Of a DNA stretch of 64,000 nt, positions 43,301-49,300 are shown piece by piece. Each line of letters starts with the position of its first letter. Positions within the stretch are counted from its first letter, which is position 1. The DNA lies in assembly GCA_951804945.1 (NCBI GenBank), contig OX638149.1:82398001-82462000 (forward strand), in the 5' to 3' direction. Under the pieces are notes generated by a model, which was given only the letters and a program-made list of their open reading frames with translations, did no database searches and was not told where the DNA came from. The translations under genes were made by a program, and so were the position numbers. The DNA comes from Podarcis cretensis (taxonomy: Eukaryota).

Positions 43301-46300
43301 ACTCAGCACATTCTTTGGTCCCAAATACAGCAGCAACTCCAACTGGTGAGAAAACAAGACCTGTCTGTGAAATGAGGACCTCTAAATCGATTTTTCATTC
43401 ATCCCCAAAGTGCTGTACAAGTACATAAATATCAAATCCATAAAACCCTCTCTCCCAACTCTAGGATTGACATTCATACCTATAGGACATACACCAAAAA
43501 ATTGGACATGTACTTTAAATCTGCCTGTGAAGTTCAGGCTGACTTAACTTCCCCTAGCCCCTGCTTTCCATCTACAGTCCATCTAGTCCTTAATCATCAT
43601 GCAAAGTTCCCACCCCCACCGGCCAAACTGATCTTCTGCTTCCCTCACAACAACTGCAGTGGCTGTCAATAGTCTATAACTGGCCCTTCCTCCTCAGCGA
43701 GTCAAAAGGTTCATGAGCACGGTGTTACTAACGGAACGTCTGAGAAGCTCACAGGCCACAGTGAGCCAGGACATAACTGGCTATGCACATGTAAGACAGC
43801 TGGGTATGCACATGTAAGACAGCTTTAGCAAGAAATCCAGATTTCTGTCAAGCAAAGCTCAGTTCCTCCTCCTCCATTATCTATTTCCTGTTTGCCCCAG
43901 TAAGTCCCTTCCACAAAAGCATCACTTTCACAAACTCCCATAGCAATGACCGCAATCAGGCTGGTTAGGGAGTGTGGCCCGGGCGCGCTCATGGCAAAAT
44001 GTGACATCGAATCAGCCTTCCGTCTGTTACCAGTCCACCCCAGGGACTTCTGGTTGCTAGGTTTCAAATTCCAGGACCAATGGTACTTTGACAAAGCTAT
44101 GCCCATGGGCTGTTCCATCGCATGCGCTGCATTTGAAACCTTCAGCGCATTCGTGGAATGGGCCATGAAACGCAGGTCAGGGTCCCACCGCATTTCCCAT
44201 TACGTCCAGCCAGCGGGCTCAGACGCGTGCGCTAGGGCGCTGGCATGCTTCATTCAGCTGGCAGCTGAATTGGGCATCCCGTTGGCAGCGGACAAGACCG
44301 AAGGTCCAACCACCGTCATCTCATATCTGGGTATTGAACTGGATTCTGTCAGCCAAACCTCTCGCCTGCCCCTGGCCAATCTTGCCTGCTGCCTAAGGAA
44401 CAGCTACAGGTGCACTCTGACGCCTCTGGTCGCTTTGGCTTCAGCGCTTACTTCAGGGGTCACTGGTGCGCACAGCCTTGGCCGACATCTTGGCATGAGG
44501 AGGGCATTACACGTGATTTAACTTTCCTTGAGTTTTTCCCAATCCTAGTGGCTCTCTGTGTTTGGGGGCACCTCCTCAAGGACACCAGGGTGTGCTTCTG
44601 GTCGGACAACCAGGCGGTGGTAAGAATCATTGCGAAGCAATCCGCAAAATCCAACAGGGTAATTTGCGTGCTCCGTCTCTTCGTGCTGGAATGTCTGAAA
44701 GGTAACATCTCCTTTTCTGCGCGGTTCATCCCGGGCCTCAATAACGACATTGCAGATGCCCTGTCTCACTTTCAGATGGAGCGCTTTCGCGACCTAGCAC
44801 CCGAGGCCGATCAACTCCCAGAAGCCTTTCCGGAGGACCTCTGGGAAATTGGACGGGAGAAGTGACAGCAGGAGTTCTGAGCGCCCTTGCACCATCAACG
44901 CTGCGGTCCTACACCAGAGCATGGTCCCAATTCGAGGGGTTCAGAGATAAGTCTGGCTTACGTCGCAGGCGTACAGCTAAGGAGTCTGATGTTCTAAAAA
45001 ATTTGGTTCACCTAAAGCGTAGGGGCATGGCCCTTAAAACCATCAGCCTGCACAAGGCTGCTATCTCCTACTTAAGCAACTGTTTTGGCTCCCAGACCCC
45101 TGTAACACTTTCCACGTAAGGAAGCTTATTGCAGGGTGGCGTCGCTCCCACCCGCCCATTGCAGATAAGAGGAGGCCAGTAACCATAGAGATCCTCCGGC
45201 TGACCTGGGATGCGCTCCCCAGTATTTGCTGGTCCAACTATGAGGTCAGGCTCTTCAGGGCAGCCTTCTCCCTATCCTTCTTTGGTGCACTCCGTATCGG
45301 GGAGTGCATAGGGGGCACATTGTCACCTCATCGCAGGGGCTTGTCTGTGGCTGATATCAACCTTGACAGGCGCATGATACAAGTCAAAATCCAAGCCTCC
45401 AAAAACCGATAAACTAGGTAGGGGTTCCACGCTAAGTCTAGCCTCCTCCCCACACACTGGACCATGCCCTGTCGCGGACACACGCAAATTCCTGAAGGTA
45501 CGTCCTCCGGGACCAGGCCTCCTCCTCATTCATGCATCAGGCCGCCCCATGACCCGTTGCCAATTTGTCTCAATATTGCGTAAGGCCATCCATGCTTGTG
45601 GAGGCGACCCAGCACAATTTTCCGGGCATTCCTTTCGTATCGGTGCAGCAACCTCGGCAGCTGCGAGCGGCCTCCCAGCAGAACACATAAAAACAATGGA
45701 GCGGTGGCGTTCAGCTGCCTTCAAAGGCTATATTCGAAACAACCAGCAGACACTGACAGATACCATATAATCCTTTCTTTCAGGCTCAACCCCCAAACAT
45801 GTGTGGATCTTCGGCCACAGCATAGTGCATTGGGCGGCCATCCATGCCACTACTGGTCCAGGCGGAGAACATCTGGGTCTGCAGCCAAAGATCTCCATTT
45901 CCTGGTTCGGCCAACGAGGAATGCGATGGGATGCCCTGCTCCCTTGGTTGCGTCACGAACTTGCGTTCCGCCATCCGCCAAACGCGGTTGTCCTCCACCT
46001 TGGCGAAAATGACTTGGTCGTGCAAAAAAGCATAATTCTGATCAAAACAGCGATCGCGCACCTGGAAAGCGTACATGCCGCTCACCCCAACATCATGATT
46101 TTCTGGTCTGAAGGAGCTATTTCGGCCCGATGGCGTGCACCTATCGGACCGTGGTAACGAGCGTTGGCTGAGCGACATCAGGCATGGCCTGATTGACTGG
46201 TTGGAGGATGGCAAAGGGGATTTTCAGATGTAGGTAGTCTTGGCGGCGAGACCGCAATCTTTGCGGTCTTGGGTGGTGGTATCAGGCCTTGGGCGGAATC

Positions 46301-49300
46301 CTTTAGTCCATCTTCCTCTTTGCGGCGGCGATACCAGGGTTCCCCGTTAAAGGGGTTTTTGAGGGAGGCTTTGGCCGTACGCCGAAAGGTCGTCATTGAT
46401 CTCCCCTGCAGCGGCATAACGGGGGCGGCTATCTCTGCTTGAACATATGTTCTCCAGAGCCGGCCCATCCCCCCCCCACACACTGGATAACCCTGATGTT
46501 CCCTAGGTCCCCGGCTGGGGACTAGGGAGGGAGAACGCCCAATGCCTGAGCCAAGGTCTACCCACATTTGAAATTTAATAAAGTTGTGGCCAATTTAATC
46601 CCATAGCATGTTGTCTAGAGTCGTTATTCCACATGACGGGGGAGACCACTCGGGATCTGGGGACTCCGCCTGTCCACGCAATGACCGCTCCCCACTTAAA
46701 ACGGGGGGCGCCCTTTGCGTGGACGCGCGCAGCCCTGGATCTGGAGTGGCCACATCAACATAGGCTTTGCCTTCCCTCAGGTGGGATACCCGGAGGTCCC
46801 CGCCTACCCCAGTGAGTTGTCCAATCCCACCTGGGGGAAGTGTTGCCAGGGAAACCAGGCCAGGTAGAGGGAGGGATTACCTGCCCACACAATAGAGGGT
46901 GGATCTTAATTGGTAATCCTCACTTGGCTCCAGAGCTTCTCCCACCCTACCCACCCTCAGTTAATGTCTTCGTTTGTAGGTTAACTTTTCTTCATAGGTT
47001 TTGCAGGTTAACCTGTCTCCACAGGTATGCGGGCGCTGCTACGATAAGGTCGCTGTTAAAGGGCCGGAAAGGAATTTCCCTGCATTGGCAGGTTTCGCCT
47101 TTCCCGTAGCAAAAGGTCACAACTTTGGCGGTATCAGGCCTTGGGCGGAATCCTTTAGTCCATCTTCCTCTTTGCGGCGGCGATACCAGGGTTCCCCGTT
47201 AAAGGGGTTTTTGAAGGGAGGCTTTGGCCGTACGCCGAAAGGTCGTCATTGCTCTCCCCTGCAGCGGCGTAACGGGGGCGGCTATCTCTGCTTGAACATA
47301 TGTTCTCCAGAGCCGGCCCATCCCCCCCACACACACTGGATAACCCTGATGCTCCCTAGGTCCCCGGCTGGGGACTAGGGAGGGAGAACGCCTAATGCCT
47401 GAGCCAAGGTCTACCCACATTTGAAATTTAATAAAGTTGTGGCCAATTTAATCCCATAGCACGTTGTCTAGAGTCGTTATTCTACATGACGGGGGAGACC
47501 ACTCGGGATCTGGGGACTCCGCCTGTCCACGCAATGAGCTTCTGCCACCATTCCATTCTTCTTGATCCAATGAATGTCCTTCTCCCATTCAGTCATGATT
47601 CACCTTGGCAGAACAGGGGAAACACATCATCTCCCTAAATTCACCTAACTGATATTTATCATTTTCCTCTGAAAGGCTATATCCAGTGTCAATTGTAAGG
47701 AAGTAGAAATTTGGTTTAGACTCCATGCTCTTCAAGCCTAATAAAAACGATATCTAGGGCACTCCCTGGGACCACTTGTTTTGGTGCTATAAAATAGAGT
47801 TTTGGTCAGACATCCCTTTGGAATAGTTTCCTGACAGGCACATACTTTTTCCCTGGAAAGATAGCAAGGGTACATTCAATACTGCAGCCTGTTCATTTCC
47901 CCTAAAAATGCCTAAAATCCACGTCCTGCAACTTCCTATTTTCACCTGCAGGCTGCACAGACAACTGGCCTTCTTTGTAACCATTGTAAATATCCATGAA
48001 GTGTCCAATTAAGTTCCATCAGTGAAAACCATAACCAACAATAATCTGAATACTACTGTACTTTACTCTATATAAATTATCTGTTGGTGTTTCGAAATCT
48101 AAAATGTGGTTTTAGCTTTCTAATTTTTACCATTCATGTGCCAACATTTCAGCTCATTCCCCTCCTCCCAAAGTCACTCAAGTCCTGGCTCTTTTAGTAG
48201 ATCATTCCATGAGCCTAGGAGGTTTTGCCAGCTCTCCTCCAGAAACCCAGTTCCTATGGACGAAGGTTTCCTTCTTACAACACACCATTGTTTTTCGATT
48301 TAGACTGCCGTGGACATAGTGTCATAAGAGAATTAGCAGAATCGTTCAGATACAACTTATCACTCTCAGGCCCTAGAACTGAACGCTCCCACCACCCCAT
48401 CACCACCTCCACCTCCTCCTCCTTTACTCAGCATCACTTACCCAGGTGCGTAGGAGGCCTTCAGCTCTGATTTGATTGGAGGGGCAATGTTGGTCAGGCA
48501 GTGGCTGCTGAGGTACCCCTTGGGCATCACCATGCCATTGTTGTTATTGCAGTTGAGGTGAGTACTGTAGCTGGGTCCACATGGACTGGGCAATGGGGGG
48601 CCATGCCGGATTGGAACTTGGCTGCCAGGGGGGCCATGGTGGAGACTGTGCCGGATAGGTACTTGGGTGCTTGGAAGGCCATGATGGAGGGGACCACTAG
48701 ATGCAGCATTAGAAGCATGGCCAGCATTGGAGACAGATACACCGACACTGGCAGAGCTGGAAGGTTGGGCATGAGGATAGCCAGCAGAGGCTGGGATTTC
48801 AGAGATGGAGTCCAAATCGGAACTGTAGGAGAGAAGTTAAAATAACCTGAGTAACATGTGCATATTGCACTTTTCAATCTGCAGACATACAGGGTGACTC
48901 AATAGCTATACACTGAATGATGTTGGCTCATCACATCATTAATTCTCCACTGAAAGAACAAAAAACCCCACCACAGAATGTCTGAAAACATATAATGTCA
49001 TTTGATCCATGATATGGAATAGAAATAGAAATGCGATGGCTAACCTGAAAGTGGAGATTACAACCACATTTATGACATCCTGTTGGTGCATGTGAGTGTG
49101 GCAACAGACATCAGCACTGTTCTCTGGCATTTGTTCCACAATGAAATCAAGAAAGAATCATGCACACGCCTTGGATATTCTTCTGAAAATCTCCTTTCAA
49201 ATACTCACCAAGCTTATACTTGGTCAACAAGATGTGATCTTCTGGCTGCTTGTGGCCCTTTGCTACTAAGTGCCATCCAATGCAGCACACAGAAGACATA

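Follow-up and report, generated by a model that had tools for sequence, protein, structure and literature searches.

How does a retrotransposon with a tyrosine recombinase (YR) gene join its circle junction to a host chromosome, and how many letters must the two partners share? The question is raised by a Ngaro-like element in a 64,000-nucleotide stretch of Podarcis cretensis DNA (GCA_951804945.1, OX638149.1, positions 82,398,001-82,462,000 of the forward strand), referred to here as the window, whose own positions are used throughout. Three copies of GCAATGA lie at 43943-43949, 46678-46684 and 47531-47537, in the flanks that the original prediction quoted for them, and they mark, as it held, the two host junctions and the internal junction between repeats B and A. 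What is new in the present analysis is a conserved folded junction, a crossover placed at the edge of its bubble and a one-sided pattern of flanking bases; the element itself is ordinary in kind. The parts that meet at these junctions are as follows.

43943..43946, + strand: host bases G-C-A-A at the left junction, in good agreement with the family preference R-Y-A-A
43947..43953, + strand: start of repeat A1, 5-7 bases (TGACC, then GC common to the reverse transcriptase)
46274..46681, + strand: repeat B1, ending ...CCACGCAA, with 400 matches to B2 over 408/409 bases
46672..46724, + strand: hairpin at the B1/A2 junction, marked by its shuffle z and a conserved fold
46682..46941, + strand: repeat A2, about 260 bases, matching A1 of full-length copies
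46942..47125, + strand: spacer between A2 and B2, found in solo A-spacer-B copies too
47126..47534, + strand: repeat B2, the element ending with the AA at 47533-47534
47535..47537, + strand: first right host bases, TGA, whose T suits the A/T preference

Two of the three junction copies of GCAATGA are the ends of the B1/B2 repeat, and the heptamer is common, with 18 copies in the window against 12.0 expected. At the left junction the crossover probably lies between 43946 and 43947; at the right, the GA of the host TGA matches the element by chance.

The target word at the ends of sister copies

Classical YR sites, such as loxP and att, have an overlap of 6-8 bp that is identical in donor and target, and the original prediction proposed a two-strand exchange of this kind over GCAATGA, with the family targeted to that word. 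At this one locus the proposal holds. Flanks were counted at 112 loci picked by their A start or reverse transcriptase (RT) sequence and not by the core word, which gave 105 left and 83 right ends; 30 loci ranked by likeness to a GCAATGA-bearing query were kept out. Numbering starts with the first A of the AA as 0, the second A being +1 and the next base +2.

Left ends carry A at 0 in 105/105 and at +1 in 102/105, preceded by a purine at -2 in 94 (A 62, G 32) and a pyrimidine at -1 in 79, while right ends carry AA in 83/83, followed by A in 39, T in 40, C in 4 and G in 0. Further into the right flanks, positions +3 to +7 hold only 0.04-0.24 bits, so that a homologous overlap of 6-8 bp is not used. 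G at +3 (23/83) and A at +4 (33/83) are slightly raised, which speaks for the longer core, and TG opens 21 of the 48 T-starting right flanks by hand count. GCAATGA itself, however, is present at just 8/105 left and 6/83 right ends of sister copies, and at 7/91 left and 9/95 right ends in hand-counted pattern listings that overlap these sets (9 internal junctions set aside on the left, 5 on the right); moreover, at -2 the host's A outnumbers the element's G. The family target is R-Y-A-A followed by A or T, as a weak preference, and only AA is shared with the element. The sister flanks thus refute the seven-letter core, and a classical exchange over it is very improbable.

The length of the match at the window's locus can be accounted for by luck. 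GC precedes the left AA in 9/105 ends and TGA follows the right AA in 6/83 (10/95 in the hand-counted set), so both sides would match by chance in 0.6-0.8% of copies; with at least 509 exact A-start matches in the family, a few such copies are expected.

The part of the prediction in which the B/A junction is joined to a host site without duplication was borne out by paralogous empty sites. When the two flanks of each copy were joined, 95 empty sites could be predicted; a spanning match was found for 10, and 6 of these 10 have a single AA without duplication (L063, L064, L112, L119, L152 and L028), the remaining 4 being too diverged or gapped for judgement. Recombination of YR retrotransposons at a short shared word has been published before, DIRS1-like ends being NTT and a short word shared at the circle junction being the published model (PMC3266345, PMC7192593). 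The AA core described here is a new measurement of a known idea.

A conserved fold at the B/A junction

An inverted pair across B1/A2 was first shown by a repeat scan. In the window's hairpin, an outer stem of 10 bp (46672-46681 with 46715-46724) is followed by a 4x4 bubble (46682-46685 / 46711-46714) and an inner stem of 8 bp with one T.G pair (46686-46693 with 46703-46710), closed by a 9-base loop. The crossover point, 46681/46682, is the edge between the outer stem and the bubble. The fold has z of -5.2 to -6.6, with 0/200 shuffles as good, on both strands.

The same fold is conserved across families. A recombinase search of the genome, from which 20 whole loci and 20 short pieces were taken, yielded further Ngaro families, 52-77% identical in YR DNA. 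Every natural B1/A2 junction found there (8 in one set and 11 in another, some families being in both) has a shared plan of C-R-C-A-A, a 2x2 mismatch, an 8-bp stem, a loop and TTGYG, the last placed 30-32 bases on in the other families and 33 in the window. In 12 natural junctions, the window's excluded, the 16 pairs of the fold are paired in 94.3% of 192 cells, and 9/16 pairs have been altered on both sides, a compensatory pattern. Sliding the partners lowers the paired share to 44-55%, and 0/500 shuffles reach the observed value, a test that is inflated by kinship among the junctions; RNAalifold recovers the same fold unaided. Unpaired features are kept as well, namely a bulged A at -4 in 11/12, the 2x2 mismatch and T.G at +8 in 12/12. 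The window's own family is the odd one, with its 4x4 bubble, a paired -4 and the wobble at +9. Outside the core hairpin, further pairing (a G-rich/C-rich stem) is seen at 46655-46740 and in other families, and most families have a small second hairpin directly downstream.

The comparison was extended to 80 metagenome loci, of which those shorter than 3 kb were left out of the self-repeat scan. Seven families with usable ends were kept, with YR identity of 32-37%; their junctions were five natural and two joined from one copy's ends, and the +2 position of L272 is uncertain. Ends could not be set for L229, L238, L263, L279/L299, L283 and L291, and no related loci were found in viral contigs. 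All seven distant families have an inverted arm of 5-9 bp ending in AA, 22-28 bases from its partner, as against 2.6% of 4955 cases in which an arbitrary AA has such an arm of at least 5. Six of the seven junctions fold better than at least 194/200 shuffles. Over all families AA and TT lie 22 to 33 bases apart, a variation that would be expected of a loop but not of a double-stranded core of fixed length.

These distant ends also locate the crossover. AA is kept in 13/13 of their right ends and is present in only 3/11 host-left ends, which places the crossover right after AA, at the outer stem edge. The AA of lizard targets would then be a binding preference of the enzyme rather than homology, since most distant left ends do without it and lizard hosts have A at -2 more often than the element's own G.

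Furthermore, the product is one-sided. The host-left ends listed, anchored from +8, have the element's own six bases in 91/91, and the host-right ends have them in 0/95. A two-strand cut six bases apart without homology should, we infer, give six-base stretches of mixed origin and, once these are replicated, the element's six bases on the right in some copies; a single product points indirectly to the exchange of one strand.

The host base at +2 is linked to the hairpin base that faces it. Where the facing base is T, as in the window's family, the host has C in 4/83; where it is G, in four other families pooled, the host has C 25, T 22, A 22 and G 10 of 79 (Fisher p 8e-06 for C). The pooled set was counted by hand, with 20 internal rows and 1 unclear row set aside, and the idea had been noted beforehand from a smaller overlapping sample, so that the comparison was not made blind. 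Where +2 forms a C-G pair, as it does in one distant family, C starts 3/3 right flanks.

A proposed one-strand exchange and its rivals

The reading that we favour, and hold to be fairly probable from the fold, the flanks and the analogy with known systems, is a one-strand exchange on the folded B/A junction, resolved by replication or repair. The junction would be used as a folded single strand, either free single-stranded DNA or an extruded arm of the circle. Folding would put the distant TTGYG arm opposite the B end, so that two arms around a mismatched centre form a site for the recombinase. This enzyme would cut the plus strand after AA, and the cut strand would be swapped with a host duplex similar to the arm. 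Host replication or repair would resolve the junction, so no homology of 6-8 bp would be needed, and the whole would operate in the manner of attC x attI in integrons and attP x dif in CTX phage. By the polarity of tyrosine recombinases, the 3' phosphate is held on the tyrosine and the free 5' end enters the centre. The plus strand is the lower in energy at 11/12 and 8/8 junctions, and T.G pairs favour it, with 12 G.T against 1 A.C in 88 cells. DIRS-1, moreover, makes single-stranded cDNA usable for integration (PMC7192593). A hairpin or single-strand model of Ngaro/DIRS integration was not found in the literature searched, which did not include Goodwin and Poulter (2004) or Poulter and Butler (2015), where the ends may be described. 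No mention of a hairpin occurs in PMC6681497, PMC3266345, PMC3783388 or PMC13465315, and PMC7192593 has one.

Several observations weigh against this reading. The families are related, so the pair counts are not independent events, and some folds are weak: in lizards, 76/200 shuffles match L204 and 8/200 match L185, and the distant junction L295 folds no better than shuffles (66/200). The two strands fold about equally (AA/TT pair probability 0.60-0.97 on the plus strand and 0.73-0.97 on the minus), the plus strand being chosen only by T.G pairs, energy and the recombinase polarity given above. In DIRS-1, the cDNA that is known is antisense (PMC7192593), and the site described here is on the sense strand. 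Enzyme specificity could lie behind the difference at +2, and the facing base does not explain host G there (10/79). Also, a fully single-stranded circle with two equal hairpins predicts permuted insertions (A-spacer-B-A-ORF-B, where ORF is an open reading frame). None was seen among the 31 RT-bearing sister copies, of which 12 end B-A-spacer-B, 17 have one B and 2 have no B; only one of the full circle's two identical junctions thus seems to be used.

A further such point is the linear order AA-N6-TT, present at most junctions (TT at +8/+9 in 8/11 and 5/7), which is what a double-stranded circle with a degenerate AA-N6-TT core would have. In that case one strand would be exchanged, or both with biased repair, in the manner of strand-biased integrative elements (SEs) or of Tn916-type integrases, and the inverted arm would be an extra binding site or serve another step. 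The window's family offers some host-side traces of such a core, with T at +8 and +9 in 35 and 33 of 83 (p 0.012 and 0.036, uncorrected) and TT in 16/83 against a background of 9.6%. SEs exchange one strand without a hairpin, leaving six bases on a fixed side (PMC9345347), and the published DIRS model has a double-stranded circle (PMC7192593, PMC3266345). The T excess is, however, absent in other families (27/79 at +8, p 0.24), and the window's family itself lacks TT at +8/+9. A duplex core also does not explain why the inner stem pairs with compensatory changes, why the bulge and the mismatches are fixed, why the spacing varies over 22-33 bases and why host +2 goes with the facing base. We regard it as unlikely.

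The G.U pairs of the fold suit an RNA hairpin equally well. The hairpin might then act in RNA or in cDNA copying (template switch, end definition or packaging), with integration left to a short AA word in duplex DNA: the B1/A2 junction is within the transcript, T.G on the sense strand suits RNA, and the fold holds with RNA energies at pair probabilities of 0.50-1.00. This would not account for a crossover that, in all families examined, falls precisely on the stem/bubble edge, nor does it give a reason for the choice at +2 to track the facing base, and we consider it quite unlikely.

For one-strand exchange, a close known counterpart is the integron site attC, whose AAC is cleaved between A and C at the edge of a stem beside an unpaired spacer, with replication resolving the junction (PMC5027507). 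The likeness lies in structure kept over sequence, with a stem, an unpaired centre, a second stem and a variable loop, and in a cut after AA at the stem edge, an unpaired base and, as proposed for Ngaro, the exchange of one strand (PMC5027507, PMC4792948). Like attC, the Ngaro junction is a conserved imperfect one-strand hairpin with little sequence conservation. The two differ in that attC has the R box RYYYAAC/GTTRRRY, an unpaired spacer of 5-6 bases and extrahelical G and T near the L box, whereas the Ngaro site has C-R-C-A-A, a 2x2 or 4x4 centre and a single bulged A in the outer stem, AAC occurring only in one distant family. Ngaro also differs from attC in being a retroelement donor and in its targets, which are degenerate and lie throughout the genome. 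In a profile search of solved structures, the closest to the YR are Cre-type (E 4e-05), which is a further point against the reading, and no integron integrase was found at E up to 1; the predicted model of the YR (AlphaFold, predicted local distance difference test score of 42) is too poor for judging an I2 helix. By analogy, then, the junction would work like attC, but it is no attC and the enzyme is no IntI.

CTX phage borrows host enzymes and has one fixed target and no extrahelical bases, whereas Ngaro encodes its own YR. When CTX attP(+) recombines with dif through XerCD, folding of a single strand restores a site with two arms, and the recombinase that acts on it has no special single-strand domain (PMC4792948). 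SE-6945 and SE-6283 share the one-strand exchange and the six element-borne bases on one fixed side, but they are four-gene DNA elements with few targets, described without an inverted repeat at their sites (PMC9345347). The DIRS1-like model has the same very short word without duplication, its junction being mostly AAT/AAC with the same AA; it differs in its inverted repeats, internal complementary region, antisense AA, double-stranded circle and 3-bp identity (PMC3266345, PMC7192593). In the elements studied here the AA belongs to the sense strand, and some families do without identity. Finally, described Ngaro elements (Xenopus DIRS-53_XT type with an SGNH ORF) have the same A1-ORFs-B1-A2-B2 layout with RT/RNase H, YR and, as a candidate in the window, a hydrolase-like ORF, as well as similar solo AB copies and 5' deletion variants (PMC9210276, PMC8547959). 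The target word, crossover and junction hairpin, here mapped from about 100 ends per side, were not found in the portions of those papers that were examined (PMC9210276, PMC8547959).

The window's element, its relatives and their meaning

The left junction on which the window's own evidence depends is no assembly error, since a contig from another sample (X20) spans 43081-43981 with 0 differing letters. The original prediction had asked whether the RT family sequence itself holds the bases at this point, which would make the left end a plain truncation. This is not so: 28/28 other RT copies listed have no TGACC at the breakpoint and carry ordinary RT sequence upstream, the match to the window starting at 43952. 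The breakpoint is the window's alone among the 29 RT copies listed. As 43947-43953 is in addition the start of repeat A, we read this as a true left end followed by a deletion.

The deletion, sized on seven longer copies at 3.5-4.0 kb, took out what followed in A1 together with gag and the beginning of RT, with a breakpoint microhomology of 2 bases, GC; it probably arose after insertion, just inside the left end. A YR event at the RT breakpoint was considered, because GCAAT fits the target word, and was set aside in favour of a microhomology deletion, since such an event would leave a B end and none is there. A rival account takes the left GCAATGACC to be host sequence that resembles the junction by chance and adjoins a plain 5' truncation. 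In its favour are the A1 remnant of just 5-7 bases and the failure to see an empty allele of the locus, although the reads over 42700-44600 from 4/23 listed runs give no evidence either way (two runs had no flank coverage, one stopped at 43913, and 82 loose ends were outside view). AATGACC in register with a proper right end is, however, expected about once in 16,000 (4^-7), and other deleted copies retain a short A1 start (L124, L115, L118), which makes the chance account scarcely credible. Elsewhere, left-end duplications that include the host flank (two A starts with the same flank) occur in L116 and at G000:C3:55202043 and 55202407, and in L258 the right flank is duplicated, over 96 bases, at a truncated left end.

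Between the left end and B1, the element has three coding features.

43952..44862, + strand: 3' part of RT plus RNase H, 5'-truncated (RVT_1 E 3e-05; tblastn pieces)
44769..45767, + strand: YR gene in three frames, with an HSFR motif (Phage_int_SAM_1 E 7e-04; Phage_integrase E 9.5e-05)
45771..46154, + strand: SGNH/GDSL-hydrolase-like ORF, shortened, after the YR (weak Lipase_GDSL_2 match, E 0.11, below the cut-off)

By its repeats and by its RT/RNase H and YR the locus is a dead, internally deleted Ngaro retrotransposon. RT/RNase H precedes the YR on the same strand, and the split direct repeats are present as B1-A2-B2, with A1 reduced to 5-7 bases. Its long repeats are direct and not inverted, in contrast to the inverted terminal repeats and internal complementary region of DIRS1-like elements. 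The RT/RNase H has one frame break near 44380, a short internal loss relative to other copies. An alignment of YRs from 10 open-frame copies has R, K, H-x-x-R and W invariant and Y present. The hydrolase-like ORF is 40-42% identical to the equally placed ORF of three other families, and AATAAA stands within B1 at 46577-46582. Ngaro elements have no methyltransferase, and tetrapod members carry an SGNH hydrolase ORF behind the YR; here a methyltransferase had no family match in the domain search.

The family is dominated by solo A-spacer-B copies of about 860 bases (L004-L007 and L020-L029, for instance), 61 of the 95 two-ended copies being 800-999 bases long, and about 32 close RT copies stand against the at least 509 exact A starts. 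Of the diverged RT matches, L092, L093, L094/L095 and L098 gave no usable ends. Homologous recombination should favour the longer and closer B-B pair, so the solos may also arise through the recombinase or by direct insertion; because A1 and A2 have no diagnostic differences, these three origins cannot be told apart. It is conceivable, though improbable, that the integrated B1/A2 hairpin recombines with its own left or right junction, which would give solo A-B and A-ORF-B copies much as in cassette excision. A subfamily (L103, L111, L121-L129) combines an RT deletion with a unit of 112-117 bases of the hydrolase ORF in 2-5 tandem copies, and its spread over several chromosomes argues that non-autonomous copies moved in trans. 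The genome holds at least 8 further Ngaro families with a YR 47-72% identical to the window's, and several of their copies, with 100% identical repeats and open frames, are evidently young. One copy of another family, L099 (G000:C14), lies within a 186-base satellite array, and C14 has a second, equal YR match about 100 kb away.

To the right of the element, 48438-48836 (-) is a 132-codon open frame rich in Pro, His and Ser, bounded like an exon of a host gene and without a Pfam match; it contains an IKSE motif, presumably of SUMO type. If this is a host exon, the element would sit in an intron in the opposite orientation. The neighbourhood also has short elements with terminal inverted repeats, resembling miniature inverted-repeat transposable elements, at 42189-42438 (26 bases, 96% complementary) and about 52735-52980, and an imperfect inverted repeat of 48 bases with a 12-base loop at 50429-50536, likely a known squamate repeat.

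The seven-letter word itself matters little, whereas the target rule permits curators to set Ngaro ends exactly. The standing model of DIRS-order integration needs a double-stranded circle, while the intermediate has been found single-stranded and the circle junction was not amplifiable (PMC7192593). Recombinases that accept single-stranded sites were named, in the portions consulted of a 2016 paper, only as IntI and XerCD (PMC5027507). If the proposed exchange is true, a folded-strand site would reconcile the circle model with the single-stranded intermediate and explain why two letters suffice, and the Ngaro YR would be a third single-strand recombinase, eukaryotic, with loose targets and no duplication, of interest both for evolution and as an insertion tool. 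We give a little better than an even chance to the wider proposal that the integration of split-repeat YR retrotransposons (Ngaro and its relatives, in lizards as in distant eukaryotes) proceeds through a folded single strand of attC type with replicative resolution, the facing base helping in target choice; this would be one-strand recombination carried by a eukaryotic retroelement. The folded junction and the one-sided flanks make the mode of Ngaro integration directly testable, and the proposal, if correct, would supply a direct assay with a substrate of 55 bases in which the arms, bulge, wobble and cut point are all defined.

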